NCBI GenBank assembly: GCA_022711115.1
Contig: JAKLFP010000009.1
Coordinates: 4,622-68,621 of the forward strand
From: Candidatus Omnitrophota bacterium
Lineage (GTDB): Bacteria > Omnitrophota > Omnitrophia > Omnitrophales > Aquincolibacteriaceae
Reading direction: 5' to 3'
DNA: 64,000 bases
Under the pieces are notes generated by a model that had not been told where the DNA came from, searched no databases, and saw only the letters and a program-made list of their open reading frames with translations. Positions 4,749-64,000 of this stretch are shown piece by piece; the first letter of the stretch is position 1, and each line of letters opens with the position of its first letter. The translations under genes and the position numbers were made by a program.

Positions 4749-5993
4749 CTACGCTTCTCTCTTCATCACCGCGACAAGCGCCGCCAGAACCCAGAAATAC
4801 GACGAGACATTATGATAAAAAATTTTTGTCTCATAAAAATTGCTCAACACAAACGCGGGAATACTGCCCAGAAACCCCAGGGCCAGCCCCTTGGCCCACC
4901 GGTCATGCGTCTTGAGGTAGAGCGCGAGCGTGTCCCAAAAGATCTTGATGAGCAGCCACAGGAACACGGCCAATGCCGGCAGTCCCATTTCCGCGCCGAT
5001 CAGCAGATACGTGTTGTGCGCGTCCGTGGAAGCGGCTTTGGACCAGTAATGCACCAGTTTGGCCGGAAACAGATCATAGCCCACGCCCATAAACGGATGT
5101 TCCTTGATCATTTGCATGCCACCCTTGTAGATTTCAACGCGCCCCTGCAGACTCGGGTCCAGGACTTCGCGCACCTCGCCGGCCTGATACCGGCGCTCAT
5201 ACGTCTGGCCGAGCCGGTGCCGAACCCCGTCCGGTAAAAAAGCGGGATTCAAATACAAAAAAATCGAAACCCCGAGCAGTAAAACAAAAAGCAGCCGGCT
5301 CCGCAAAAAGACGATCCCATGCAGCGCGACTGCCAGCGCCAGATAAGCCCCACGCGAAAACGTGCACATCAGGGCCCGCACCATGACCAGAAAAGGGACC
5401 AGCAGCAGCCAATATTTCCGGTCGCGAAAGTTGATCAGAAAAAAACCGAGCATAAGAAACAAGGTGTATGCCAAAAATGCGCCCAGGACATTGGGATCCC
5501 CAAACACCACTTCGATACGGTCCGGCCGCCGCATATACTCCACCAGCGTGTAAACACCGATCAAGCCCGCCACCGCGCACAGGATGACGCAAATTTTTTT
5601 GCCCTCTTCACGGGTTTTCGCCAGATAAAGTACGAGCGTGTAAGCGAAAAAAGGCATCAGCCAGTTCAGATAAAAGGAAAGCGCGGCCTTGCCCAGATAT
5701 TCCGCGCCGTAACTCATGCCGGACAAAATGGAGATGCCTCCGAGCGCCACGAAGCAGAGCATGGGCACTTTAAGCGGATGGGCAACGGACGCGGCGTTTT
5801 TTTCTTCCGCCCGCCGGCGCCACAGAGCCCACCCCGTAAGCAGTAAAAATAAATTAGCAGCGTTAAACACACCCGGCAGGAACGGCAGACTCATCCAGTT
5901 GCTCTGGCTGAACGGCAGGCACGCGAGGAAGCCGTAGAACGGTGTTTGCGCACTACCTAAAAAATCTTTTATTCCGTTAGTGTTTTTTTCCAC
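4749..5993 (-). CDS. O-antigen ligase family (Wzy_C) polytopic membrane protein
   Basis: More than 10 hydrophobic segments. Central periplasmic loop with FSRGAYLALAV and a TDAHNTYL motif typical of Wzy_C/WaaL-like proteins. Confidence 0.7.
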   Translation of the reverse strand: MEKNTNGIKDFLGSAQTPFYGFLACLPFSQSNWMSLPFLPGVFNAANLFLLLTGWALWRRRAEEKNAASVAHPLKVPMLCFVALGGISILSGMSYGAEYLGKAALSFYLNWLMPFFAYTLVLYLAKTREEGKKICVILCAVAGLIGVYTLVEYMRRPDRIEVVFGDPNVLGAFLAYTLFLMLGFFLINFRDRKYWLLLVPFLVMVRALMCTFSRGAYLALAVALHGIVFLRSRLLFVLLLGVSIFLYLNPAFLPDGVRHRLGQTYERRYQAGEVREVLDPSLQGRVEIYKGGMQMIKEHPFMGVGYDLFPAKLVHYWSKAASTDAHNTYLLIGAEMGLPALAVFLWLLIKIFWDTLALYLKTHDRWAKGLALGFLGSIPAFVLSNFYETKIFYHNVSSYFWVLAALVAVMKREA

Positions 5994-8735: not shown

Positions 8736-9539
8736 TCAATACGCTCTTTCAATCGAACTGCGGACCAAATCCCGGTCAAAAAGCCTCCGCTCCTGCTCGT
8801 CTTCCAGAAAACGCTCCACATCCGCTTGGGCCGCTTCAAAATCAATGCCCTCGATCCTCTCGAGCAAAAACGCCTTAAACGTTTCTCGGCTCAAATCCAG
8901 GCGCTTTTTCTCCGTCTGTTCAACGGCGTTATTCAAGAAAGTGAAATTCGGGACCGTTTTCCGCCCGACATACCAGATAAAATCATACCAATCCCGTCCC
9001 TTGTTATAGCCGCGGAAAAAACAGGCGTGCAGTTTGCCCGCGAACATGGACGGCAGGTCGTAATGCGCGACCCCGAAAAGATGGATCTTGTTCAGGATCG
9101 TATGAAGGATCACGGCCCCTTCCGGCGGACGCGTGTCCATGTCCCATTTGATCATCAGCTTTTCATCCGGCATGGCCGCCACGCCGAGGTCCTTGAACAG
9201 TCCGGGGAATTTGATCATCAGACTCTTGACCGCGCCCTGCTCCCGGGACTTGCCCTCCGCCTCGATCCCGTAAGACCGGTAGGATTTCAATAACGCTTCC
9301 GCGGCATCCCCAAACACGAACTCTTTTCCCGGAATCAGAGAAAAATCCAGATCCTCCGAAAAACGGCGCAAGTCAAAAAGGATCCTCAGCGCCGTCCCGC
9401 CAAGAAAAGCGGCAAAATCAAACATGCCCTTGTCACTCATGATCTTCAGGCACAAGACCTGAAGATATTCCCGGGCCATGTTCTTTTTCTGCTCCGCGGT
9501 CATCCCTTTCTGAAATTGATTCTGGATCAGATCGATCAT
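8736..9539 (-). CDS. abiEii: AbiEii/AbiGii-family nucleotidyltransferase toxin (type IV TA), pair 1
   Basis: FLGGTALRILFDLRRFSEDLDFSL nucleotidyltransferase motif (GG[TS]A...SEDLDF). ATGA overlap with the upstream AbiEi gene at 9536-9539. Confidence 0.85.
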   Translation of the reverse strand: MIDLIQNQFQKGMTAEQKKNMAREYLQVLCLKIMSDKGMFDFAAFLGGTALRILFDLRRFSEDLDFSLIPGKEFVFGDAAEALLKSYRSYGIEAEGKSREQGAVKSLMIKFPGLFKDLGVAAMPDEKLMIKWDMDTRPPEGAVILHTILNKIHLFGVAHYDLPSMFAGKLHACFFRGYNKGRDWYDFIWYVGRKTVPNFTFLNNAVEQTEKKRLDLSRETFKAFLLERIEGIDFEAAQADVERFLEDEQERRLFDRDLVRSSIERAY

Positions 9540-10171
9540 GACTTCCCCTCCGCGAGTTCGATCACCGCGTCGAGCACGCGCATCAGTTTCGGAGAACAAA
9601 ACAGTTCCCCGAACCGTTTCAGCTTCCCGGTCTTCAGACCAACCGCATTTTGAAAACGGTAGGACTTCATCATCATGGCCTTCACATCCTTCTGGAACAA
9701 ATGGAGATTCAAATAAATAAAATCCACAACGGCTTTTTCAGGCTCGGCCATAAAAAAACGCGCCCCCGCATCGCCTTCGAGCCGGAAACCGCGAAAGGCC
9801 GCTGGACTGACATGCTGATAAATAAAAGTACCCAAAGGGTTGGTGAACCGCATCGTCTTTCGCGTGGTAATCGAAGTGACCGCGGCCACCCGTTCCGGAA
9901 TCAGGTCATAAGACGCGAGCGCCGTTTCAAGACTGACATACGAAGGCGCATAGATCTGACAGGCAAGATACATGCCTCCGGGGTTCACCTTGCGGTCATT
10001 CTCATTCAGGACATAATAACCTTTACGCAAATGCCGGAGTAACCCTGCCTTGGCCCAGCGCGTCAGCTGATTCCGGACCGATTGCGGTGCCTCGCCGCTT
10101 TGCGAGATCACCAGCCGGCTGTCAATGAGCGGTAGATGCTGGAAAAATGCTCGAAACTTGTTGTAATTCAT
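9536..10171 (-). CDS. abiEi: AbiEi-family antitoxin/transcriptional regulator, pair 1
   Basis: N-terminal winged-helix region (QSVRNQLTRWAKAGLLRHLRKGYYVL) typical of AbiEi. Immediately upstream of AbiEii and translationally coupled to it. Confidence 0.8.
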   Translation of the reverse strand: MNYNKFRAFFQHLPLIDSRLVISQSGEAPQSVRNQLTRWAKAGLLRHLRKGYYVLNENDRKVNPGGMYLACQIYAPSYVSLETALASYDLIPERVAAVTSITTRKTMRFTNPLGTFIYQHVSPAAFRGFRLEGDAGARFFMAEPEKAVVDFIYLNLHLFQKDVKAMMMKSYRFQNAVGLKTGKLKRFGELFCSPKLMRVLDAVIELAEGKS

Positions 10172-51926: not shown

Positions 51927-53111
51927 TCAGATCTCAGTGAATTTAAGTGCTGTCTTCGTCGCAGCATCCGTTCGGTGCGAATAATGACGCAGGCACACCT
52001 TTATGTCCCGATGTCCCGTAATCCCCATAACGTTTTTCGGGGCAACCCCCTGATCCAGCAATTCCGTAACCACACACTTCCTGAAGACCTTGGATGTGAT
52101 CTCACGTCCCAGGATCTTCAAGGATGCTTTCTTGAGATAATTATTAAAGCGGTCGTAGGACAGCCGTTTGCCTTTGGAATTAGGGAATAGGCAAGTCGCG
52201 TTCGGATTGTAATAGTGCAGCAGGACATCACGTAACCCCCTGTCGTCCTTGACCAGGGTGGAGTGCAGCTCCTCCTTGTTCTTTCGATCCCCCGCTTCGA
52301 CACGAATGGCGATCGAAACAGCATTTTCAAAAGCGATATTCTTGGTCTTGATGGATAAGATCTCACAAATCCGCCAACCGAGTCGCATCAGGAAATACAA
52401 CACCCCCCAATATACAGGCTTGTCCTTCTTAACAAATTCCAGCAATTTCCGCTTTTCATCCTTAGCAATCGGGGTATACGGGGTTTCTCGCATTCTGGGA
52501 ACCTTCAAATCAGACAATTCGGTCACAACGTCACTTCCGCAATAACCCGCTCGGTAGAACCGCTTCATATTGGATTTAAGCACTTGTAGCTCAGTCCGCC
52601 AGCCCTTTTCACGATTCAATTTAATCGTTACATACCGTTGGAAATCCAGCAGTGCACCTCTTGGCAGCTGACTGATTCTCTGCAAGTCGGGATACTCCTG
52701 TCGGAGAAAATCGATGAAGTGCTGCCACCCACTGAGCGATCGGTTGATGGTCTTGCGTCGGCAGGCGTCGGCAACCATCATCTGTCTAAGTTCATCCTTC
52801 AATGCCTCGAACGACTGGCTCTGTTTGGATCCGCTTTGAAAACTCTTTTCACTTCGGAGGGTTCTCAGCCATTCGTGACGCTGGAATTCCGCCTCTCGCT
52901 GGGATTTCTTCTCCAGATGAATGGTCTTGTATTTCCTATCGCCCGATGCATCATAGCCATCAAGCAGATAGACATGCAGGCCAATCTTGTCAGTGTTTCG
53001 GTACCGAACACCCTTAATTTGCTTCGCCAACTTCCCCTCCTGCAACAGCCATTCCCCGCTCTTTAACCCACCGCCTGAAGTCAGCGACTGGCGAAAGGAG
53101 TCGTTTCCCAA
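51927..53111 (-). CDS. Tyrosine-type site-specific recombinase/integrase
   Basis: C-terminal catalytic region ITGHRDIKVCLRHYSH (H-x-x-R ... Y). Domain size typical of phage integrases. Confidence 0.8.
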   Translation of the reverse strand: MGNDSFRQSLTSGGGLKSGEWLLQEGKLAKQIKGVRYRNTDKIGLHVYLLDGYDASGDRKYKTIHLEKKSQREAEFQRHEWLRTLRSEKSFQSGSKQSQSFEALKDELRQMMVADACRRKTINRSLSGWQHFIDFLRQEYPDLQRISQLPRGALLDFQRYVTIKLNREKGWRTELQVLKSNMKRFYRAGYCGSDVVTELSDLKVPRMRETPYTPIAKDEKRKLLEFVKKDKPVYWGVLYFLMRLGWRICEILSIKTKNIAFENAVSIAIRVEAGDRKNKEELHSTLVKDDRGLRDVLLHYYNPNATCLFPNSKGKRLSYDRFNNYLKKASLKILGREITSKVFRKCVVTELLDQGVAPKNVMGITGHRDIKVCLRHYSHRTDAATKTALKFTEI

Positions 53112-53226
53112 GCCTGATCAGCGGACAACCAGACGACTTTTTCCACCGACTCGACTGGATTGTATTCGGTCGAATCCGCAAGATTTTCGCAATCTCTTCA
53201 ACGCTTAAGAACTCCGATTCAATCAT
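53014..53226 (-). CDS. Excisionase/AlpA-like HTH DNA-binding protein
   Basis: LSVEEIAKILRIRPNTIQSSRWKK HTH. 70 aa. Directly upstream of the integrase. Confidence 0.5.
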   Translation of the reverse strand: MIESEFLSVEEIAKILRIRPNTIQSSRWKKSSGCPLIRLGKRLLSPVADFRRWVKERGMAVAGGEVGEAN

Positions 53227-53227
53227 T

Positions 53228-53800
53228 TCAATCTACCCCCTGTGTTGGACTTCGTTTCCCAAGTTTCCTGGATTCTTTATCACGCCCTGCATACCTCAAA
53301 CAATAACCTGAAGTTGCCCTCTTTCGCTTATCCCCAGCCCCGACAGGCCGCCCCAACCGCCGCCCACTTGCCCGTGCACGATCCAATCCTCCAAGCACCC
53401 GTGAACGGATGATTTCTCTTTCGAGTTCCGCAAATATGCCGAGGAGTTGCCAAAATGCTCGGTTCATCGGACTGTCGTTTGAGGTGTCGATGCCATCGGC
53501 GATTGAGACAAGACGAACGTTTCGATTCTTAAACTCTGCCAGCAAATTCAGAAGGTGCTTGAGTGATCGGCCAAGCCGATCCAACTTAGTTAAAAGAATC
53601 GTTCTGATCGATCCCAATCTGACTTCTTTTAAGAGTAGATCCAACTGCGGCCTAGAATCCCTCACCCCACTGATCCCGACATCAGAATAGATCTTGAATT
53701 TTGAGATCCCTTGATTCGAGCAGTAGTCTTTCAGCATCTTCACTTGGGCAGCAACGTCCTGTTTTACCGTGCTTACCCTACAATACAATGCAGTGCTCAC
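53228..53800 (-). CDS. Serine recombinase (resolvase/invertase family)
   Basis: N-terminal ALYCRVSTVKQD catalytic-serine motif. C-terminal HTH. Confidence 0.85.
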   Translation of the reverse strand: MSTALYCRVSTVKQDVAAQVKMLKDYCSNQGISKFKIYSDVGISGVRDSRPQLDLLLKEVRLGSIRTILLTKLDRLGRSLKHLLNLLAEFKNRNVRLVSIADGIDTSNDSPMNRAFWQLLGIFAELEREIIRSRVLGGLDRARASGRRLGRPVGAGDKRKRATSGYCLRYAGRDKESRKLGKRSPTQGVD

Positions 53801-53876
53801 GCTTCACCTCATACTACGGTCATACGCCGTATGAATTATACAAATTTCAATCTCCTTGTCAAATGCTTAATTAGAT

Positions 53877-54425
53877 TTATTTCTTAGGAATAGGCTTGTA
53901 AAGGGACGCTGCGGACTTATGCAGATCACGCATCTGCACTTCGAAAGACTGACCTCTGCTGACCATCTCCTGGACAACGTCGGCGAGCTCATGCTTGCTG
54001 GCAATCATTTTGATCTTACTCAGAATCTCTTTCTCTTTTACCGATCCACCACCCTCATAGAAAATGCTGCTGGAGCAAAAACTGTATGATTCGGTTAAAG
54101 CAAATGGGATCACCATCTGGTGGCCCTTTTCCTCATCAATCGAGAAATCATCTTTTGTTATGGTCTTAAAATAAATCTGAATTTCATGACGTGTTCGTTC
54201 TTCACGCCTCCGTGCCTCATAGAGCTGGCTCCATGAAATGCCACACAGTCTCAGCAATTTCACATTATTCAGAATCCGCAACTCTTCGAGAGTAAAGAGG
54301 CGTTGCTTCCCCCTCCCCTTCCTCTCCATTTTGAGTTTGATCAAAGCCTTACCAACCCACGCAGCGGTCACCTGGAGGCGGTGGCAGATCTCGGTTAGAT
54401 TTAATTCCTTAGGGATAATCGCCAT
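53877..54425 (-). CDS. Hypothetical protein with N-terminal HTH
   Basis: LTEICHRLQVTAAWVGKALIKL helix-turn-helix-like. 182 aa. Confidence 0.4.
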   Translation of the reverse strand: MAIIPKELNLTEICHRLQVTAAWVGKALIKLKMERKGRGKQRLFTLEELRILNNVKLLRLCGISWSQLYEARRREERTRHEIQIYFKTITKDDFSIDEEKGHQMVIPFALTESYSFCSSSIFYEGGGSVKEKEILSKIKMIASKHELADVVQEMVSRGQSFEVQMRDLHKSAASLYKPIPKK

Positions 54426-54519
54426 GGCCGAATATCATACATCGTATGACCTAGAGGTCAAGGTATTTCAAGGTATTCGCATTTCACGGCCTTCGCCGTC
54501 CGCAGGATCTTTAGGAACA

Positions 54520-55131
54520 CTATATCGCAGGATTCGTCGATTTCGAGGCATCGGGAACATGATCCTTCAACCTCTCTTTAACCGATTCCTTCCAGGCCAC
54601 GTCCGCAAGAATATGGGCAACCTGCTCCATCCGAGATTGCTTATCATCAAAGATCTGGCGAGCTACTGCCTTAGAAACCCTGATGGTGCAGTTGTAGGTG
54701 GTAGCCTTGGCTGGTTCTTGCTCAGGGGCAGGCTCCGCCCGCTTCTTTTTACCCTTCTTTTTGGGCGGAAGCGGAATCGTCATAGAGTGCATAAACGTAA
54801 CTTGAAGCTCATCATTAGGGATGCTTTCTAAGTATTTCTCGAACTGCTTAAGTGTTTCCTTGCTGCAGAAAAATCTCTTTCCACCAAAGATCGCATCCCA
54901 AAGCGACAGGTTTTCAGAGCCATCACCTGCGACTGTAAGTACTCCTTCGGTTCCATCTTCAAAAATGACCTTTTTGCCATCCTTGAGGACTTGAGTGGAA
55001 GCCTGGCGTGCGAGGTTCTCATTCTTCTCCAGCTCAACGCATTCGACACACTTCGCCAGAGTCTCTTTTGGATCATTCAGGGGTTCGATCTCCCCCATCG
55101 TTTTGTCACATCTTCTGCAAACGATTTTCAC
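54520..55131 (-). CDS. Hypothetical protein with N-terminal CxxC...CxxC zinc ribbon and a Lys-rich linker
   Basis: MKIVCRRCDKTMGE...KCVECVE. KKKGKKKR stretch. Confidence 0.4.
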   Translation of the reverse strand: MKIVCRRCDKTMGEIEPLNDPKETLAKCVECVELEKNENLARQASTQVLKDGKKVIFEDGTEGVLTVAGDGSENLSLWDAIFGGKRFFCSKETLKQFEKYLESIPNDELQVTFMHSMTIPLPPKKKGKKKRAEPAPEQEPAKATTYNCTIRVSKAVARQIFDDKQSRMEQVAHILADVAWKESVKERLKDHVPDASKSTNPAI

Positions 55132-55308
55132 GGCTCCATCATCCTTAAAATGTTTCCTTTATCTTAACGAATCGATCAAGAGAGCTCTACCAAATAATCA
55201 TTTGATTATTTGGTTTCATAGATCACCGCTCCCATCGAAGGGGTTTTGGACAATAAATTAGGGGGAGGTTTATTTGGTACGCCTTCCATGGCTGGGTTAT
55301 AATCCCGC

Positions 55309-55530
55309 ATGAACCCCAACTTCAAAATATCATCATCCACGGATTCGGAAGGTTTCAAGATCACATGCTACGATATGCGAAACGGTAAGCGGATTCCGCT
55401 GACAGGAATTTGCACTCACGAGAATATCCGAAAGATCAAAGCAAAGAAACCAGCATCAGACCCTGTCGCTCAACTCCGAGATGTAATGCAACGATCGCTC
55501 GAAGTGTGGGAAGAAAAGGGCCTGATTTGA
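55309..55530 (+). CDS. Hypothetical small protein, 73 aa
   Basis: Only + strand ORF in the element. No recognisable motif. Confidence 0.25.
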   Translation: MNPNFKISSSTDSEGFKITCYDMRNGKRIPLTGICTHENIRKIKAKKPASDPVAQLRDVMQRSLEVWEEKGLI

Positions 55531-55554
55531 CCGAGCAGTAATTCGGTTACTGAA

Positions 55555-55731
55555 TTATTCTGCCTTCTGTCTTCCTACCACGTTGTACTTCTTATCTAGC
55601 TTGATCAACAACTCGAATAAATTCGCCGTGTTCGTGGCGATTTCCCTGGCATCCTCCATGGTCAACGGCTCCTTGGAATACGGTTGCCAAACCTTGATCG
55701 TCTTCTCCAAGAACTCGTCGGAATAAGTCAT
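55555..55731 (-). CDS. Small ORF, 58 aa (MTYSDEFLEKTIKVWQPYSKEPLTMEDAREIATNTANLFELLIKLDKKYNVVGRQKAE); not in the supplied track because it is under 60 aa
   Basis: ATGA start/stop overlap with the upstream gene 55728..56096. Clean protein-like composition. Confidence 0.35.
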   Translation of the reverse strand: MTYSDEFLEKTIKVWQPYSKEPLTMEDAREIATNTANLFELLIKLDKKYNVVGRQKAE

Positions 55732-56096
55732 GACAACGCTGCCAGGAGCTGCCGTGCAGCCCGCTCATTTCGGATTGCCTTGTTCATTCCATACGGATCT
55801 GATTTGAGGTGAAGCCTGAGAAACCTACGAGACTTCTTCGGATCACGAGATGCGTAGTACCTGCCAAGCTTAAAGAGTTCGTCGGTGTTTGGTAACGGGA
55901 GTGGGATTCGCAACCTTTGGTACTCAGCTACCAGGTGCTCCAATTCCTTCGCAGCTGGCCCAGTCTTCCCCCGTCGTTCGAGGTGCCGAGCAACCTGCTG
56001 TGTAAGCCAAAAAGGGCGTTTTAAGCGACGGTATAAAGCCAGGGCCTTCCCGTATTGCTTCCGTTGCCATAACTGATCAAATACCTCAACCTTCAT
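55728..56096 (-). CDS. Hypothetical protein, 122 aa
   Basis: Member of an overlapping five-gene minus-strand operon. Confidence 0.45.
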   Translation of the reverse strand: MKVEVFDQLWQRKQYGKALALYRRLKRPFWLTQQVARHLERRGKTGPAAKELEHLVAEYQRLRIPLPLPNTDELFKLGRYYASRDPKKSRRFLRLHLKSDPYGMNKAIRNERAARQLLAALS

Positions 56097-56655
56097 GCGT
56101 ACCCATTCCTAAAGGCCGTATCTTCGCCGTCTCAGGCCCTGGCTTGCCCGAACGAAGCTCCTCAAGAACAGCGGTAGCAACCTTGATTCTTCCACTTTCT
56201 TCTTCGCCCGACGCAACCTTGAAATAGTGTTCAAAGTAATCCACCGCTTCAGAATCTTTCCCATCTCGAACAGAATTGTAGCCAAGCCAGTACCAACTCG
56301 GTGCGAAGTTTGGATTAGCCTCCGTCGATTTCTTGAAGTATCCGTTACCTTCCTCCGAGCCCATATTGATCAAGGCGAGGTCATACCAGGCCACGTATCG
56401 TTTCGGATCAAGCTCAACCGCCCGCTTCAAATGAACAGTTGCCCGCTCTGCCTGATTGTCCGACATCAGGAGTGCATGGCCGATCGCTTCCTCGATCTCC
56501 GCCTCACCCCTACCCTGGCCACTTAGATCTTCGTACAGCTGCTGCTCGATCCTGACCCAATCAATGTCATTAGGCGTATCTGCGGAATAACCAGCAATCG
56601 TCAAAGATAGGAAACAAATAATCGCCAAACCAGCATTCTTCAAACTGCAACTCAT
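56086..56655 (-). CDS. Secreted TPR-repeat protein
   Basis: Signal peptide MSCSLKNAGLAIICFLSLTIAGYSA. TPR-like repeats (AVELDPKRYVAWYDLALI..., ANPNFAPSWYWLGY...). Confidence 0.6.
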   Translation of the reverse strand: MSCSLKNAGLAIICFLSLTIAGYSADTPNDIDWVRIEQQLYEDLSGQGRGEAEIEEAIGHALLMSDNQAERATVHLKRAVELDPKRYVAWYDLALINMGSEEGNGYFKKSTEANPNFAPSWYWLGYNSVRDGKDSEAVDYFEHYFKVASGEEESGRIKVATAVLEELRSGKPGPETAKIRPLGMGTHEG

Positions 56656-57098
56656 TATGGAATTTGAGCCACCCTAAATCGAATGGTCTTGTGAGTTGTA
56701 TTATTGAAGAGAACTCGAATACCATAAGTGTCAAATTTCTCGAATTTAATGTTCTCGAAATTTAACACTGCCAGAAATCCCTCAGGCCATCCCTTTGGGG
56801 TTAATCGATTCTTTCCTACATGAAGAGGCCCTCCTGCAGCAACCACCTCGTGACCATCGCCATCCAAGATGATCACTCGCAGATCATGATCTCTGTCAAC
56901 TTCCGCAGCATCAAATGACAATTTAATGACCACCGACAAACTCTTATGAATCACGGGTAGTTGTTTCGCAAAGATTGTGTCGAAAGCACCACCCAAGACA
57001 TAAAGTTTCCCTCCAACCGCCTCCGCTCTATCTGCTAATAGACAAAAGTCAACTTCCATTCTAATCACCTCCGTCGTAATTCTTGCTTTCAGTTCCAA
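56655..57098 (-). CDS. Hypothetical protein, 147 aa
   Basis: Overlaps both neighbours. No recognisable family. Confidence 0.45.
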   Translation of the reverse strand: MELKARITTEVIRMEVDFCLLADRAEAVGGKLYVLGGAFDTIFAKQLPVIHKSLSVVIKLSFDAAEVDRDHDLRVIILDGDGHEVVAAGGPLHVGKNRLTPKGWPEGFLAVLNFENIKFEKFDTYGIRVLFNNTTHKTIRFRVAQIP

Positions 57099-57381
57099 TA
57101 GAACTGCTACCCGTTTGAATAATGACTATCTTGATTTCTCTTTGCACACCTGGCTCTAACTGAACAACCTGTGTTTCTTCTCTTAACTTCAACTCACGGT
57201 GTTCGGATTCGAGTTGCTGCTTCAACGATTCGTTCGCCTTGATTTCCGAACCGTGAATCATCGAATTAAGTTTCCACCCGATAAACCCGACAAGCAGAAG
57301 ACAACCATAGAATGTGGGCTGAATACAAAGAACTTTGAGCTGCTCAAAATTGTCTTCCAAAAATTTCATTAGATCATTCAT
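57061..57381 (-). CDS. Small single-pass membrane / coiled-coil protein, 106 aa
   Basis: One hydrophobic segment (CIQPTFYGCLLLVGFIGW) followed by a charged coiled-coil-like region. Confidence 0.4.
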   Translation of the reverse strand: MNDLMKFLEDNFEQLKVLCIQPTFYGCLLLVGFIGWKLNSMIHGSEIKANESLKQQLESEHRELKLREETQVVQLEPGVQREIKIVIIQTGSSSIGTESKNYDGGD

Positions 57382-57532: not shown

Positions 57533-60301
57533 TCAACGCACAACATCAAATAGATTCTTCGGATCATCGAGGACTTTGAATTCCCACGTCCCGAAACGAC
57601 CATCCACATTGACGGCATTGATCCATTCCTTGGTGGCCTGCCACTTCGCCTTGTCCTGCTCTGTGGTTTGCCCCTTTACTTCAAGTATCAGATGTCTGTT
57701 GCTTTCAAATCTGATGATGTAGTCAGGATAATAGGTGTGAGTCTGTCCCTGCCACAGATAAAAGATCTCGAAGCCAAGATGGTCGTTCTTCACCCATGAT
57801 ACGAGCCCAGGAATCCGATTCCGCTCGAACTCAAGACCGACCTTCTCCCAACCGCTGTCAATCACGATGTGACTCAACTGGCTCTTCTTTACGGGTTGCG
57901 TCGGCTTGCTCGTGTACCAGGTCATGGCAGTGGCAGTACTCCGCTTAGGTCTCACAGGATCCAAGATCAGTGTCGGGGCTTCCTTGCTGGAGCTGCGGAT
58001 GAAATTACCGATGTGGTTAATGATCTTTTGAGCATTGATTGCAATAACGATATTCCGCAACTTCTCAGCTCCCATATACAGTGGGATCTTGATATCGAGT
58101 TTTGGAGATGCCAGGAACTCATCGAAAATCTGCATCAGCTGGCTGATGTGACTGCCTGGATCTCCCTCCCAATTCTTTCCAAACTGCTCATGGAGTCGAA
58201 CAGCTGCCTGAAGTTTGATGCCCTGCAACCGATGTTCTTCCGCCAGCTTCGCCAGATCAATCTCACTGATCATGTCGTAGCGTGGTTTATTATCAATCGT
58301 TGGAGCCACTTCGACGACGGTAGGAGCATCTTCAGGAGACAAGGTCAGTTTTTCCATGCTGTTCCAGTCAAGATCGAGGAAATAATTTAATTTGTAATCG
58401 ACCCTGAGGACGTGGGGCCAGTCGATCTCCAACGCACCACGCTCCTGGATAGGAGCAATTTTCGTCTTCGGTTTCTCTTCTTTTGGCTTTCCTTCCTTTT
58501 GTTCCGCAGGCAAAAAAGTGAACGGTACACCGAAAACAGTTACATATTCAGGCTCATACAAACCCGTCTCCTCGTTCACGTCGTATGAAATCCGTCGTAG
58601 TCCTCGACCAATGACTTGTTCGCATAGTAATTGACTCGTGAATGCACGGAGACCGAGGATATGCGTCACCGTACGTGCGTCCCACCCTTCTGACATCATG
58701 TTGACTCCAATGACGCACTGAACTAATTCGCCAGCTTTCCCTTTTTTCCCGACCGTGTTGAATTTCTCTCGTTGGTCTAAAACTAGATCCTTTTTCGACC
58801 TGTCGAGTTTCTCTTCCTCTTCAGCTTCGATTTTATCCAACGCATCCTGATCGATTCGGATGAGACGTTGTCTGTCGCCCAACTCTTCGACCGATATGAA
58901 GCCATTGAGCAACGAATACTCGACCCTTGCTGCAGTCTCGATCCGATTACAGATCATGATCATGACAGGAGGCGTTTCCCTGGGGGGACTCTGCTTCTCC
59001 CAAAGCTCCTTCTCTTTCAACCAGTCACCGCCTAGAATTGTCATGGCATTTCGCACGAGATCAGGCAGACCTTCGTTCGGCTCAGCACGACGGTTCAGAT
59101 CCTCTCGAACTTCTGGATAAATGTGGAAGAGTTTGGTCTTTAAGTCCGCACCCATGTTTGAGTCATCACGCACAGCAACCTTTGGCGTTTTCACGAGACC
59201 GCTTTCAATGGCATCATTCAGACCGAAATCACTCACGATCCATGGGAAGAGCTGCTCGCCTTGGATATTCTTTCCAGTAGGTTTGAACGGTGTAGCCGTA
59301 AGATCGTAAGTCTTCAATACACCCCTACCGTTATGGATGCGGTCGATCCCGCTGATCCAGATAGTAGCCTTTTCTTCTTCCTCCTTATCCTCTTCGTCGC
59401 CTGAGGGTCTGTGACAATGATGTGCTTCGTCATTGATAACCAGCACGTTGCTGGCGTTGCCAAAATCAGGAAGAATTCTGCGGAAGAAAGCCTCGTTACT
59501 TTCGGGCCCTTTCTTCACAACCTTGGGGCCATAGTTCTCATTGATGGGTGCCAGTGAGTGCCAGTTGGTCACGATGATTTTGGCCTGAAGAAGTTCCTGC
59601 CACATGGAAGAATCTACGAGGTTGAACTGCTGGTAGAAGTTTTCAGCATTCTCAGGCTTTAGAACCTGAAGCCTGTCACGAACAGTAATACCTGGAGCAA
59701 CCACAAGGATATTTTTCGAGAACCGTGGATCTTTGGAATTTGCAATCTTATTAAGAGCCTGCCACGAAATTAACATGGCCATAACCACGGTCTTGCCCGT
59801 ACCCGTCGCCAGTTTGAGACACTGCCGTTCCCACCCGCTTCCATCAGCGGGGATTTCAATACCTTGTTTTTCGGCAGGACTCGCTTCAGTCAACCAAATC
59901 GCCGTTTCAACCGCTTCAAGCTGACACCAAAAGAGCTTGGATTCCCGCTGACTATTATCAGTCCAGAACTGGAGCAATTTCCGTGTTACGCCCGTAACAT
60001 TCGGATAACCATTCTCTTTCCACGCCTTGACCCTGGGCCTGATCTTATTGACCAGTTCGATTTCCTGAAACTCCCCTGGATCATCGAAGTTCCTCGCTGT
60101 CCTTACCGTCGCTCGCCAATAACCTGATTCCCGCCGACCAGCATGACGTTCAAAAGACTGCGTTTCCCTGATGTAGTGCCAGTGCTCTTTCGGCTCCTCG
60201 TAGGGGCTGCAGATAATCAGCTGATCGATCCCTTTTTGGCTCATCGTGTTACCATTTCCCCTCTGTGGGCAAGTAAGGAAGTCGTAACCCTTTATAAACA
60301 A
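57533..60301 (-). CDS. res: Type III restriction enzyme Res subunit (SF2 helicase plus endonuclease)
   Basis: Walker A ATGTGKTVVMAMLI. DEAH box LVINDEAHHC. About 900 aa. Downstream of the mod gene. True start probably the internal Met (MSQKGIDQL) about 60244. Confidence 0.85.
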   Translation of the reverse strand: MFIKGYDFLTCPQRGNGNTMSQKGIDQLIICSPYEEPKEHWHYIRETQSFERHAGRRESGYWRATVRTARNFDDPGEFQEIELVNKIRPRVKAWKENGYPNVTGVTRKLLQFWTDNSQRESKLFWCQLEAVETAIWLTEASPAEKQGIEIPADGSGWERQCLKLATGTGKTVVMAMLISWQALNKIANSKDPRFSKNILVVAPGITVRDRLQVLKPENAENFYQQFNLVDSSMWQELLQAKIIVTNWHSLAPINENYGPKVVKKGPESNEAFFRRILPDFGNASNVLVINDEAHHCHRPSGDEEDKEEEEKATIWISGIDRIHNGRGVLKTYDLTATPFKPTGKNIQGEQLFPWIVSDFGLNDAIESGLVKTPKVAVRDDSNMGADLKTKLFHIYPEVREDLNRRAEPNEGLPDLVRNAMTILGGDWLKEKELWEKQSPPRETPPVMIMICNRIETAARVEYSLLNGFISVEELGDRQRLIRIDQDALDKIEAEEEEKLDRSKKDLVLDQREKFNTVGKKGKAGELVQCVIGVNMMSEGWDARTVTHILGLRAFTSQLLCEQVIGRGLRRISYDVNEETGLYEPEYVTVFGVPFTFLPAEQKEGKPKEEKPKTKIAPIQERGALEIDWPHVLRVDYKLNYFLDLDWNSMEKLTLSPEDAPTVVEVAPTIDNKPRYDMISEIDLAKLAEEHRLQGIKLQAAVRLHEQFGKNWEGDPGSHISQLMQIFDEFLASPKLDIKIPLYMGAEKLRNIVIAINAQKIINHIGNFIRSSSKEAPTLILDPVRPKRSTATAMTWYTSKPTQPVKKSQLSHIVIDSGWEKVGLEFERNRIPGLVSWVKNDHLGFEIFYLWQGQTHTYYPDYIIRFESNRHLILEVKGQTTEQDKAKWQATKEWINAVNVDGRFGTWEFKVLDDPKNLFDVVR

Positions 60302-60343
60302 ATGCGTTAAATTTTACTTGTACTGACACACGGCAAGTAACCG

Positions 60344-61804
60344 TCATTGCTTCTTCACCTCTTGTGCATCTGGTAACTTGTATTTCGTCCCCTTCACATA
60401 TCCTGACGGAGGGACAATCTGAATAAGTAATCCGTGCTTAACCCAATTCTTCAGCATCTTCGCCATCTTGTCCCGTTGAACAACTCCCGTAATCCTCCGA
60501 GCCTCCTCATTCGTGACATATTTATTGTCTTGAAGATAGACACTCAATTTCTCCCATTCGGAAATCCGATGTTCGTTCAAAAGAACCACTTTCACGGAAT
60601 CTTGATAGAGCGGATAAGTTAAGAAGATCGGCGGATACAACTGGCGATCAGACATCTCATGCCGCATTGCACGAACGCCTTCGCTCTGATCTAAATTAGG
60701 CGGAGACGGAAATTCCCTCAAATGCTTTACAATCAAATCATTCCGATACCCTTCAGCCCGAACCCATCCAATGTTCGTCCGAGTAATGTTAAATGGGAAC
60801 AATCCAGGGCTCTCCACTTCAACACGGTCTTCGTAAATCTTCACTTCGATATCCCGCTTCATGTGATAATCACGGTGAATGATGGCATTGGTAATCGCTT
60901 CTTTAACCGCCCGCTCAGGAATCTGATAGACAGTCTTGAAACCCGATGGGATCCTGATCCCTGCCTGCAACAGCGTCAGCACATATTCATGGGCATCCCG
61001 AATTTGTTTAATCAATGGCCCCTGGATAGTTTTTGGAACGCTGATGAGATTGGGAGTTTCCGCAATGGTCTCGATAGTGCCCGTGTATTGGAAAACCCTG
61101 ACAGCACACTTCGCCTCGGTCAAATCATTCGGATATTCAGCAAACAAAAGGACTGCTGCCAGCGTTGGCAAAAGCGTTCCTTCATCATTCTTTCGGGCAA
61201 GGCCAGTCTTTTCAAGCACCGTCTCAATCGGTGCCCCGTTAATACGTCGAGCTTGCTTCCATTCGTCAAAGACAGGCGTCCTCAACAAATCGAATTCAAC
61301 CTTCACGAGCCCCTTATCCGCCTTCTCAAATCCTTTCGCATAAGCGAATTTGACAACTTCGTGGGCAGTCATCATCCGATTGCCCTTTTCACCTCGCACG
61401 AAAACATGGTTGTTTGTCGACCTAAAACTATCCATGGCTTTGGGAACAAAAATAAGTCCGATCCTTTTTTTGGCCTCAGGGACATCCAAGATGGTCGGAG
61501 GCCACAGCGGAGCTAATGGAGGGACTATCTTCTGGATTTCATGACCGAGGGAGTCGAAGACTTGAAGGTTCTCATCGATGCCGTAAATGCGATCCAATCC
61601 CTTAAGCTTCGTCTTTTCAGGATCATCTACGCCAAGAACGATGACACCACCATCCGTATTCGCCATTGCGACAACGGTCTCGACCGTCTTGCCGACAACT
61701 TTCTCGTCCCCAAGACGCTTAAATTCGACTGTCTGTGTCTCAGCAGGGATATCTAGGATGCTATTCAAAAATTCGCTTGGGCCATCTTTTGCCATGAATT
61801 TCAC
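60344..61804 (-). CDS. AlbA_2 (Schlafen-like) DNA-binding domain plus HATPase_c_4 ATP-binding protein (COG2865-like), embedded between mod and res
   Basis: N-terminal ETQTVEFKRLGD...VETVVAMANTDGGVIVLGVDD is an AlbA_2 signature. C-terminal KEAITNAIIHRDY is a HATPase_c_4 signature. 4-nt overlap with mod. Confidence 0.8.
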   Translation of the reverse strand: MKFMAKDGPSEFLNSILDIPAETQTVEFKRLGDEKVVGKTVETVVAMANTDGGVIVLGVDDPEKTKLKGLDRIYGIDENLQVFDSLGHEIQKIVPPLAPLWPPTILDVPEAKKRIGLIFVPKAMDSFRSTNNHVFVRGEKGNRMMTAHEVVKFAYAKGFEKADKGLVKVEFDLLRTPVFDEWKQARRINGAPIETVLEKTGLARKNDEGTLLPTLAAVLLFAEYPNDLTEAKCAVRVFQYTGTIETIAETPNLISVPKTIQGPLIKQIRDAHEYVLTLLQAGIRIPSGFKTVYQIPERAVKEAITNAIIHRDYHMKRDIEVKIYEDRVEVESPGLFPFNITRTNIGWVRAEGYRNDLIVKHLREFPSPPNLDQSEGVRAMRHEMSDRQLYPPIFLTYPLYQDSVKVVLLNEHRISEWEKLSVYLQDNKYVTNEEARRITGVVQRDKMAKMLKNWVKHGLLIQIVPPSGYVKGTKYKLPDAQEVKKQ

Positions 61805-64000
61805 TCCAACTTTTTGATCACGAATGATTCGATGCCACGGTTGTCGATGATCTTGACCGCAACCTTCTTTTGATCGCCTGCGGAAAAGGGCAGGGATTCG
61901 ACACCACGAAAGTGCTCCAGTAATTCCTCGTTCACTTCACCGTTCAGGGCTTTCGCCAACTTCGTCCAGTCCCGCTTCGGATCGGATTCGGGAAAGAACA
62001 CCTGGTCGGGATAAAGGCTGCGTTCGTCATAGTCCGTATCCAGGAACCACATCGCAATATGCTTCGTGCCCCGTGAAATGATCTCACCGCTCACGGGATC
62101 GTAATAATCGAACCCATTGACCGTCACTCGATATTTCCCATCCTTGGCTTTCTTGACCTCAACATCAGGTTGACCGATCAGCCAGTAACTTTGACTGGAC
62201 GATCGCTTTTTCCGCAGATCTTTAGTCAGGAGATCGACGCTCATTTGAGCCTTCAAAATCTTCACACCAGGCCAGTTAATCTGGTCGATGTCTTTGGCAG
62301 CTTCAGGATCGAAGTGGAATGCAGCGAAGATGACGAAGTCGGGCTTGTCTTTTAATGCCCTGGATTCTTTAATGGCTTCCTCAACCTGGCGTTGTTCGAG
62401 CGGGCCGTAATCAGGGCCGAAACTGATGTGGGCTTTCTTGGTTTCGCCTGCTTCCAGGATCTCGCCTTCGGCGTGGAGAAATCTTGTCGCCACCATCGGC
62501 TCGATCCTTGAGAACGAAATAATTTTGTTCCCAATGGTACGGATTCCCGTTGCCTTGAGCTCGTCCCGCCACTCCGCTTGTCTTCCAGTCTCACCAGTTC
62601 GAGCCAGCTGATCTTTCGTTACCTCAACGATCGGCTCCTTGCCGTCAAACGGCTTCACCCGAAGACTGGGTACCGCTTCAACCGTAAATGGCCCAGTCAC
62701 TCGAACCTTATCTCTTTCTACGAGAGGTTGGTCGTAAAGAGTTTCCTGCTGGGAAGGAAGGTTATTAGCAAGATCACGGAGAGTAATGTGAGGGACGGTT
62801 TGATACTTGAAACCGCTTCTCACCCCTTCGTTCGAGTGGGCCAACTCCCAATAATCGAATTTTGCTGTCATTAGACGTTGTTTTGTCAGAGTAATCGCAA
62901 CTCGTGAAGTATCGCACGTAATCCACCGCCGCCCCCATAGTTCGGCGACATAACCCGTAGTGCCCGAACCACATGTTGGATCGAGTACGAGCTCTCCTGG
63001 ATCAGTCGTCATCAGCATGCATCGTTCAATTACTTTTGGATTAGTTTCTACTACATACAGCTTCGCAGCAGCAAAAGTGCTTCGTATCGTGTCGTCCCAC
63101 ATATTTGTAAATGGGGCGAAAGGAAAATCAGCAGCGTAACGTTTGAACGAAAGCGTTTTGCCTACTGGGAAGAGCCTGCCCTTATGGCCCAGTTCATTCA
63201 ATCCAGGAATAGAAGTTTTCCAATGTTTATTGTTCCCTATCTCGTAAACAACACCGTTGTATTCGAATGGTTTTGAACCTTCGGCTGACGAACCTTGAGA
63301 TGTTAAGTTCGAGCTCTGAAATCGTTTAGATCCCAGTGGATCTTGCGAAATTTTCTTCGGAGCTTTAGTAATTTCTCCATCCTCCAATTCGAGCCATGTA
63401 AAGCCTGATTCGATCATTTCGTCAGGTCGATCTTGATACAACTGGTGACATTTCACTTTTCGTTTGTCCTTCGCATACCATATCAAAAAGTCGCAAACAT
63501 TGGGCAGGAGCTCCGTCTCTTGGTAGGCGGTTTTCTTAAACTGAATGATCGAACAAAAATTGCTGGCACCAAATAATTCATTCATCAATTCATGAACATG
63601 GTGAAGGTTTTCATCGCTAATTTGGACAAAACAGCTGCCAGACTCGTGAAGAAGTTCTTTTGCAAGGAACAACCGTTCACGCAAATAGGTCAAGTAACTG
63701 TGAATGCCAAGTTCCCAAGTGTCTCGGAAAGCCTGGATCATTTCAGGTTCTGCTGGAATGTCACCATCGTTACCGTCTTTCACGTCACGTTTATTAACGA
63801 ATGGCTGAAAATTAGAATTGTATTTAATACCGTAAGGTGGATCGAGATACACCATCTGAACCTTGCCAGCCATACCTTCCTTCTTGAGAAGGCTGTTCAT
63901 AACCAGCAACGAGTCTCCAGCGATGAGGCGGTTCGTCCAGTCCTGTTCATGACGATAGAAATCAACGGCCTTGTTCAGGGGCGGATCATTGTCGGGCTCT
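61801..64000 (-). CDS. mod: Type III R-M Mod subunit (N6-adenine DNA methyltransferase, beta class); N-terminus lies beyond the window end
   Basis: Motif IV DPPY (VQMVYLDPPYG) precedes motif I FxGxG-like (LDPTCGSGTTG). NRLIAGDSL N-terminal region. The reading frame stays open to position 64000. Confidence 0.85.
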   Translation of the reverse strand, partial: EPDNDPPLNKAVDFYRHEQDWTNRLIAGDSLLVMNSLLKKEGMAGKVQMVYLDPPYGIKYNSNFQPFVNKRDVKDGNDGDIPAEPEMIQAFRDTWELGIHSYLTYLRERLFLAKELLHESGSCFVQISDENLHHVHELMNELFGASNFCSIIQFKKTAYQETELLPNVCDFLIWYAKDKRKVKCHQLYQDRPDEMIESGFTWLELEDGEITKAPKKISQDPLGSKRFQSSNLTSQGSSAEGSKPFEYNGVVYEIGNNKHWKTSIPGLNELGHKGRLFPVGKTLSFKRYAADFPFAPFTNMWDDTIRSTFAAAKLYVVETNPKVIERCMLMTTDPGELVLDPTCGSGTTGYVAELWGRRWITCDTSRVAITLTKQRLMTAKFDYWELAHSNEGVRSGFKYQTVPHITLRDLANNLPSQQETLYDQPLVERDKVRVTGPFTVEAVPSLRVKPFDGKEPIVEVTKDQLARTGETGRQAEWRDELKATGIRTIGNKIISFSRIEPMVATRFLHAEGEILEAGETKKAHISFGPDYGPLEQRQVEEAIKESRALKDKPDFVIFAAFHFDPEAAKDIDQINWPGVKILKAQMSVDLLTKDLRKKRSSSQSYWLIGQPDVEVKKAKDGKYRVTVNGFDYYDPVSGEIISRGTKHIAMWFLDTDYDERSLYPDQVFFPESDPKRDWTKLAKALNGEVNEELLEHFRGVESLPFSAGDQKKVAVKIIDNRGIESFVIKKLE

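Follow-up and report, generated by a model that had tools for sequence, protein, structure and literature searches.

A Schlafen-ATPase gene occupies an exchangeable slot between mod and res in a Type III-like restriction-modification operon of a Candidatus Omnitrophota bacterium and is followed by a conserved three-repeat element

The stretch of DNA analysed here (the window, 64,000 nt of contig JAKLFP010000009.1 from a Candidatus Omnitrophota bacterium) contains, at positions 57533-64000 of its minus strand, a Type III-like restriction-modification (R-M) operon in which a third gene, hereafter X, stands between the methyltransferase gene mod and the restriction gene res. Coordinates are those of the window unless a contig is named. 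Three co-oriented minus-strand open reading frames (ORFs) were listed in this region (57533-60301, 60344-61804 and 61801-63909); read on that strand, the gene order is mod, then X, which specifies a Schlafen/AlbA_2 domain plus an ATPase, and then res (Table 1). A preliminary description of this DNA had given the same order, strand and domains, and the ORF positions and domain matches bore it out. The motifs it had pointed to were visible in the translations (DPPY and CGSGTT in mod; GTGKT and DEAH in res), and the Pfam profile search it had proposed matched all four families named (SLFN_AlbA_2, HATPase_c_4, ResIII and N6_N4_Mtase).

Table 1. Coordinates of the mod-X-res operon, its junctions and its surroundings in the window, and of the genes found between mod and res at four comparison loci (numbered on their own contigs)
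Feature	Coordinates	Strand	Evidence or remark
mod, Type III-like beta-class N6/N4 DNA methyltransferase	61801-64000	-	N-terminus cut by window end
mod/X junction	61796-61807	-	GGAG 61807-61804, mod stop TGA 61803-61801, 5 nt, X ATG
X, 483-aa Schlafen nuclease + GHKL ATPase + winged helix	60344-61795	-	Pfam, PADLOC, alignment
X, Schlafen/AlbA_2 nuclease domain	61370-61741	-	SLFN_AlbA_2; E19, E24, K26, AMAN box, D58
X, GHKL-type ATPase domain (HATPase_c_4)	60623-60853	-	N-box E299, N303, D309
X, C-terminal winged helix (three helices + beta hairpin)	60371-60568	-	AlphaFold model
Three-repeat element (ELEM)	60263-60346	-	∼85 nt, begins at X stop codon
Repeat A1, TTACTTG	60340-60334	-	
Repeat A1′, CAAGTAA	60320-60314	-	
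Repeat A2, TTACTTG	60276-60270	-	
res, 903-aa BPTD_3080-family restriction subunit	57533-60244	-	NF046055, ResIII, gene calls of 903 aa
Rest of probable integrative island, downstream of res	51927-57381	-	Pfam
Slot, Planktothrix plasmid (L037)	3888-5983		AAA_15/AAA_21 ATPase + 232-aa partner ORF
Slot, Thermus (L039)	5140-5985		DUF3800
Slot, Picosynechococcus pAQ5 (L040)	9112-9856		UPF0175/DUF3368 pair
Slot, Methylomagnum (L045)	9150-9671		173-aa ORF

The mod frame was open to base 63999, i.e. it runs off the end of the window; on three public contigs with an identical locus (L084-L086) the full-length protein has 837 aa, which places ∼105 N-terminal residues outside the window. It matched N6_N4_Mtase (Pfam, 5.3e-28) and the PADLOC model MTase_III (PDLC03632; 466 bits, alignment from profile position 173), and its YLDPPY precedes CGSGTT, as in the beta-class order (DPPY before FxGxG). 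The res product gave a full-length match (profile positions 2-962 of 970) to the NCBIfam equivalog NF046055 (BPTD_3080 family restriction endonuclease), with 982 bits against a cutoff of 800; it also matched Pfam ResIII (1.5e-11), bears the SF2 helicase motifs GTGKT and DEAH, and gave weak matches to the PADLOC models of Type III restriction endonucleases. A PD-(D/E)xK-like region with a PDY...EVK motif was read by eye at its C-terminus, where a TnsA-like match (residues 852-899) reached 19 bits, below the cutoff, and the assignment of a C-terminal nuclease is accordingly tentative. Type III enzymes perform ATP-dependent cleavage at two inversely oriented unmethylated sites, and their Mod subunit hemimethylates. 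Like the classical systems EcoP15I and EcoP1I, the operon starts with a beta-class N6 Mod, and the Res that comes next on the same strand combines an SF2 helicase with a C-terminal PD-(D/E)xK-type region; unlike these two-gene systems (mod-res) it has three genes, its Mod is much longer and has a C-terminal half to which no domain is assigned, and its Res is of the BPTD_3080 family.

The starts of X and res determine how the three genes are spaced. The X protein is identical to database protein P0001 from a Candidatus Omnitrophota metagenome-assembled genome, and it most likely starts at ATG 61795, which has a GGAG 8 nt upstream and is the start both in the database entry of the identical 483-aa protein and in the gene calls on the three contigs mentioned above. 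The 486-aa product described earlier corresponds to a real ORF, but 483 aa is the likelier length. The 4-nt overlap between mod and X reported for this locus depended on the alternative start GTG 61804, which would overlap the mod stop to that extent; with the ATG it becomes a gap of 5 nt, as also seen in the gene calls on L084-L086. Whichever start applies, mod and X are tightly juxtaposed. In the case of res, ATG 60244 was taken as the start instead of TTG 60301, since NF046055 aligns only from residue 26 of the TTG-initiated ORF, and homologues and gene calls start at this ATG (close homologues begin MSQKGID). The X-res gap, previously given as 42 bp, is then 99 nt long; it is not an empty spacer, since it holds the conserved three-repeat element, inside which TTG 60301 lies. 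A scan for sigma-70 promoters and intrinsic terminators showed nothing at the two junctions, and the number of such sites across the region was what chance would give. Co-transcription of mod, X and res is plausible; the 5-nt gap and the scan without a junction promoter or terminator point weakly in this direction.

Both Pfam matches of X exceeded the gathering scores: SLFN_AlbA_2 (PF04326) gave 2.2e-13 and 51.2 bits (cutoff 25.3) over residues 22-145 of the 486-aa ORF, and HATPase_c_4 (PF13749) gave 4.2e-10 and 39.9 bits (cutoff 26). The nuclease motif, as defined in PMC13056530 and bioRxiv 10.64898/2026.05.29.728809, reads E19-TQTV-E24-F-K26 followed by AMAN(T)DGG and D58 (483-aa numbering), the box being AMAN rather than SAFAN. 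When 21 homologues 66-80% identical to X were aligned, E19, K26, N46 and D58 were invariant, E24 was nearly invariant, and the three N-box residues of the ATPase were invariant as well; judged by sequence, therefore, the nuclease and ATPase motifs of X are intact. A profile of the X family aligned with the mammalian proteins SLFN14, SLFN11 and SLFN8 in their catalytic segment and matched the structural-genomics protein PDB 3lmm over the ATPase segment. The PADLOC model of SLFN-pAgo type (1,121 positions) matched X residues 34-413 (E = 2e-26); its length and the matched region correspond to the Schlafen plus GHKL module of the extra-long SLFN-pAgos (bioRxiv 10.64898/2026.05.29.728809). Across Pfam, NCBIfam and PADLOC, X matched only Schlafen and GHKL families, and homology to PrrC or RloC was not found. 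The C-terminal region matched no Pfam family; in the AlphaFold model it is predicted to form a winged helix (helices 413-423, 429-436 and 441-453, strands 458-460 and 471-473), and the block of residues 411-460, with a predicted local distance difference test score (pLDDT) of 84-89, is one of two confidently modelled stretches.

Proteins of this kind are on record. The literature was searched by keyword, and what is said of it here refers to the passages so found. Proteins combining Schlafen, ATPase and DNA-binding parts were associated with R-M systems as Cluster 7 in 2026, with the mechanism left open in the passages concerned (PMC13462974), and stand-alone genes for the Schlafen plus GHKL pair, named Schlatpase, have been described in R-M operons (bioRxiv 10.64898/2026.05.29.728809). 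The association itself is thus already published and is not a new observation here, and the earlier statement that Schlafen-like ATPases neighbour R-M genes with no demonstrated role agrees with both sources. The published R-M-associated Schlatpase-HTH (helix-turn-helix) proteins have the composition of X (SLFN_AlbA_2, a PF13749 GHKL domain and a C-terminal HTH), and function is predicted in both cases; the published passages describe the association broadly, with a Type I system as the example, whereas X lies in a Type III-like operon. According to the same literature, the pSlfn-HisKinase-HTH architecture, which is that of X and one of the most frequent in prokaryotic Schlafens, makes up 19.2% of pSlfns (PMC13056530), and a GHKL domain is present in 58.6% of 103,533 Schlafen proteins (bioRxiv 10.64898/2026.05.29.728809). 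Other architectures of prokaryotic Schlafens cut tRNA and confer defence against phage (PMC13056530, PMC13462974), and in RzAgo, the SLFN-pAgo of Runella zeae, binding of ATP to the GHKL domain brings about tetramerisation and cleavage of tRNA (bioRxiv 10.64898/2026.05.29.728809). X is like RzAgo in its Schlafen plus GHKL module (∼380 residues aligned via the PADLOC pAgo model), its E-x4-(D/E)-x-K nuclease motif and its ATPase N-box; unlike RzAgo, it has no Argonaute core, and hence no guide-dependent sensor, and it ends in a small winged helix.

We assign about even odds (a probability of roughly 0.5) to the reading that X is an exchangeable second-line Schlafen tRNase effector co-expressed with the Type III-like R-M system. 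On this reading, X is cargo that can be swapped in and out of an accessory position flanked by the methylase and nuclease genes, and one transcript would carry it together with mod and res. By homology with characterised prokaryotic Schlafens, it would be a latent effector that depends on metal and cleaves tRNA; its GHKL domain, on binding ATP, would assemble the active oligomer; and the activated protein would shut down translation as a fallback where restriction by itself fails to stop an invader, the logic that PrrC follows in the Type IC EcoprrI locus. As candidate triggers, the partner R-M complex might be lost or inhibited, or the winged helix might detect foreign DNA or the products of cleavage. 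The preliminary description had offered a regulator, a sensor or an abortive-infection device as options; with both its nuclease and its ATPase motifs intact, X looks more like an effector than like a regulator alone.

The distribution of X relatives was examined by scanning one genome per species, which gave 36 X loci (L001-L036) whose neighbours were classed by tblastn, clustering and Pfam. Relatives 50-80% identical to X are spread over many phyla, with family members in Omnitrophota, Nitrospirota, Brocadia/Jettenia and many lineages of the Candidate Phyla Radiation (CPR); none was found in the viral contig collection. The mod-X-res order recurred in five of the 36 species-level genomes (L002, L005, L015, L006 and L009) and in at least six metagenome contigs (L052, L055, L063, L064, L072 and L083), so that the arrangement is more than chance. 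Type I operons of the form hsdM-X-...-hsdS-hsdR were about as common (∼5/36; L017, L019 and L020, plus the fragments L028 and L034). Elsewhere X stood beside a TOTE primase-helicase-PLD gene (L010, L011), a Schlafen-type helicase (L025), DpnI (L004) or RmuC (L016), or among housekeeping neighbours (L008, L021, L024, L035), and overall about one third of the relatives lay inside R-M operons. The neighbourhood survey called for in the preliminary description thus confirmed the recurrence of mod-X-res but not its specificity for Type III systems, Type I being about as common and most copies lying elsewhere. Broken copies or C-terminal remnants of X were found at L007, L028, L034, L079, L069, L073 and L078; such copies are few, and most are intact. 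At the two TOTE loci, the gene combining a TOTE-type primase (AEP), a helicase and a PLD nuclease follows X after 91 nt (L010 11510-14416, L011 1927-3705), and the three-repeat element is absent or degenerate.

Relative to the window, the X, mod and res proteins of L002, L005 and L015 were 63-74%, 65-82% and 68-80% identical, respectively, i.e. they have diverged to a similar degree. At L006 and L009, X was 69-73% identical while res was only 26-27% identical, which indicates that X has moved between unrelated R-M families. In a neighbour-joining tree of X, the copies embedded in Type III operons fell mostly into two clades, with other contexts interspersed, and the Type I-embedded copies were placed on deeper branches.

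The region between mod and res was then compared among related operons. Plasmids of cultivated bacteria carry two-gene operons of the same family, in which mod and res are adjacent (Rhizorhabdus, Agrobacterium, Fischerella and Mycobacterium avium), and at four further loci other genes were found in this position (Table 1); the covariance model described below did not find the three-repeat element at the plasmid mod/res loci. More directly, three pairings of orthologous metagenome operons differed only in the slot gene. L083 carries X where L081 carries a 596-aa radical SAM/DUF5131 gene (nucleotide identity 73% for res and 76% for the 3′ end of mod), and the two share an identical mod-stop/start-codon junction, TGGTGGTAAAAATATG. 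L047, L061, L064 and L072 carry X where L051, L062 and L080 carry a Fic gene, the res identity of 95% covering, in the comparison of L062 with L047, just the 39 aa of res present on the L062 contig. Finally, L006 carries X where L075 carries a Schlafen-ATPase 25% identical to X (res 90% identical in amino acids). In these cargo-swapped operons both the upstream junction and the downstream element are kept. Given such swaps, X is one of several interchangeable slot occupants and not a dedicated subunit. The alternative, an integral third subunit acting in DNA recognition, cleavage or methylation in a three-component R-M variant, would suit the tight operon (gaps of 5 and 99 nt) and the similar divergence of the three genes in L002, L005 and L015, as if inherited together; we consider it very improbable in view of the two-gene operons, the presence of Fic, radical SAM or the distant paralogue in the place of X in orthologous operons, and the X relatives in Type I operons and outside R-M altogether. 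The same facts (two-gene relatives, other contexts of X and other genes in the slot) uphold the earlier view of X as an add-on rather than a core component.

A harder alternative to separate from the effector reading would make X a single-gene module for defence or a toxin, mobile and independent of restriction in its action, which settles in R-M operons because such sites are permissive, well expressed and passed on horizontally; the two differ solely in whether X is functionally coupled to the R-M enzyme. The diversity of its contexts, from TOTE helicase-nuclease, DpnI, RmuC and Schlafen-type helicase genes to housekeeping genes, fits such independence, as do the context switches scattered over the X tree, the occupation of the same slot by other defence-type cargo, the location of the operon on an integrative island adjoining the tmRNA gene, and the apparent -10 (TATAAT-type) sequences, judged by eye, just upstream of stand-alone copies. 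Placement of about one third of the relatives in R-M operons is, however, far above random, and the precise slot and the element retained across swaps suggest an operon built to host and co-express such genes. We regard an independent module as unlikely, although it has to be taken seriously.

The three-repeat element was first recognised by aligning the X-res gap across Type III loci. It consists of a heptamer, A1, an inverted copy, A1′, 12-13 nt further on, and a direct copy, A2, after another 37 nt. In most X loci, whatever their context, A1 begins 1-6 nt after the stop codon; its consensus is TTACTTG, often extended to TTTTACTTGC. The repeats have the cores TTAYNNG and CNNRTAA, whose central bases vary between loci yet change together in all three copies (TTATACG at L002 and L005, TACAAGA at L014, TATAAGA at L036, TATTTGC at L021). 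Among the 36 loci, found by protein similarity alone, at least 20 showed the fixed geometry after the stop codon. In an alignment of 20 sequences, 94% of A1:A1′ and 93% of A1′:A2 positions were paired, and for both pairings none of 500 shuffles reached the observed covariation, while pairing collapsed when the partner columns were slid; these 20 loci were picked by eye, which biases the A1:A1′ counts, and A2 was not used for anchoring. A metagenome scan for the exact non-coding pattern returned 37 loci. At ∼25 of them, an X homologue or a C-terminal remnant of X ends 1-6 nt upstream, and the others include cases with Fic, radical-SAM and distant Schlafen-ATPase genes. With a covariance model, each locus gave a single copy, and arrays were not seen (the window copy, 60346-60263, scores 55 bits), and the element was not found in viral contigs. 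Rfam 15 assigned the X-res gap to no family; the two matches returned were at chance level (E = 0.43 and 2.7) and far below the gathering scores.

Thermodynamic folding favoured A1:A1′ in some loci and a long A1′:A2 helix in others, results that are compatible with a bistable RNA. The two pairings would be mutually exclusive. The element keeps its place when the cargo is swapped. Given the closeness of A1 to the stop codon, a terminating ribosome should cover it, and many loci have 9-14 nt between the end of A2 and the start codon that follows. R-M systems delay or limit translation of res, sometimes via hairpins (PMC12707154). From these sequence features we propose, with low confidence, that the element sets or couples translation of the downstream res and stays with the slot. 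The main alternative is that it is a recombination site for the exchange of cargo. The slot resembles an integron cassette in that a promoterless ORF is followed by an inverted-repeat element and different ORFs share the same type of 3′ element; unlike integrons, it shows no attC consensus, array or integron integrase, the nearest integrase being the tyrosine integrase of the island ∼7 kb away. An integron attC as such was rejected, as the repeats misfit RYYYAAC / GTTRRRY and occur in one copy per locus. A recognition site of the cognate Mod was likewise rejected, since the TTACTTG core is also present with unrelated Type I and Type III systems and where there is no R-M system.

The repeats also bring up the possibility that X controls its own operon in the manner of a C protein, its winged helix binding the gap repeats to time res expression while the Schlafen and ATPase domains act as the sensor. 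Type II systems with C proteins and C-boxes offer a parallel, an HTH-bearing gene and inverted repeats upstream of the nuclease gene. X does end in a winged helix; the inverted heptamers lie 19-20 bp apart centre to centre, with the third ∼44 bp further on, all three being roughly in helical phase and shortly before res; and delayed res expression is a need of R-M systems (PMC12707154). We nonetheless judge a controller improbable. The core bases co-vary in the three copies while the recognition helix of X (QRDKM) stays constant, and an element with an identical core follows Fic genes, which have an unrelated winged helix, and a radical-SAM gene. It follows that the element is unlikely to be an operator for X; the idea that the variable core reflects a co-evolving specificity of the winged helix was discarded for the same constancy. 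Further, X and the element are also found with no R-M gene downstream, and a repressor would not need strictly conserved catalytic residues in a nuclease and an ATPase. C proteins are small and consist essentially of the HTH domain, whereas X has 483 aa with two enzyme domains, and the repeats persist when unrelated genes replace it. At four loci (L069 175-260, L073 4824-4909, L078 1675-1760 and L067 8418-8782) the element is kept after a remnant of X, in which the last 33-93 codons, i.e. the winged-helix end, are left and the rest of the gene is deleted.

How X might serve restriction can be framed with PrrC, of the Type IC EcoprrI hsd locus, and with RloC, which, like X, are specified by NTPase-plus-RNase genes within R-M operons. 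The R-M enzyme keeps the tRNase of PrrC latent, and inhibition of restriction by a phage sets it free (PMC1484252, PMC12707154). PrrC differs from X in having an ABC-type NTPase and its own ribonuclease domain (PMC3025547), as against GHKL and Schlafen domains with no homology; in being always R-M-linked, which X is in about one third of cases; and in its Type IC partner, that of X here being Type III-like. Extending the effector reading, it is conceivable, though doubtful, that R-M operons of Omnitrophota, CPR, Planctomycetota and other uncultivated lineages share an accessory slot with a bistable ∼85-nt 3′ boundary, which would couple res translation to that of the cargo gene or serve as the site where cargo (Schlafen-ATPase, Fic, radical SAM and others) is exchanged, and that X in this slot would be a PrrC-like guard needing its R-M partner. 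If the guard did need its partner, the lack of defence by stand-alone GHKL-type Schlafens (see below) would be explained.

Several points weigh against the effector reading and its extensions. Roughly two in three relatives of X are located away from R-M operons, in some cases among housekeeping genes, so a dependence of X on an R-M partner cannot be general. The guard model draws on analogy, since PrrC is not homologous to X. We know of no experiment that ties any Schlafen-GHKL-HTH protein to restriction. The AlphaFold model of X, made from a 21-sequence alignment, is poor overall (mean pLDDT 51), and the domain arrangement therefore rests on sequence evidence. With respect to the element, the fold of the window copy does not surpass that of shuffled sequence (z = +0.6); mismatches of the G-U and of the A-C kind are equally infrequent in the pairings, so that an RNA structure and a DNA-level repeat look alike; and the selection by eye of the covariation loci, noted above, counts on the same side. 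Lastly, two stand-alone Schlafens of the HisKinase type gave no phage defence in E. coli (PMC13056530).

In the keyword-searched passages on R-M-associated Schlafens, there was no mention of a mod-X-res intercalation, of cargo exchange in a fixed slot or of a junction element; the fixed accessory slot with its cargo swapping and the three-repeat element, which were not found in that literature, deserve follow-up. Schlafen-GHKL(-HTH) proteins form the largest prokaryotic Schlafen class, and the compact, intact mod-X-res operon offers a concrete system in which to test them. The same operon with Fic, radical SAM or an empty slot provides natural controls that can show whether X backs up or guards restriction. 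If functional, the element would amount to a new kind of cis-acting device with which defence operons of several layers can be assembled.

The operon probably lies on an integrative island, as judged from the genes around it. On full contigs the island begins right after smpB and the tmRNA gene (L085 1433-2420). The part downstream of res holds small ORFs and genes for a DUF6941 protein, a TPR protein, a serine resolvase, an HTH_17 excisionase-like protein and a tyrosine integrase, the last three marking the island's other end; a 14-mer search showed no repeat of the tmRNA 3′ end (att direct repeat) at that border. The DUF6941 and TPR genes directly downstream of res (56655-57098 and 56086-56655) are kept on all three contigs with the identical locus. 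Upstream of the mod start, outside the window, L085 carries at 5440-5466 a GC-rich hairpin with a T-run behind it, ACGAGCTC-AGC-GAGCTCGTTTTTTT; it is preceded by a TATAAT-like sequence, lies ahead of the mod start codon and could be an upstream terminator or attenuator.

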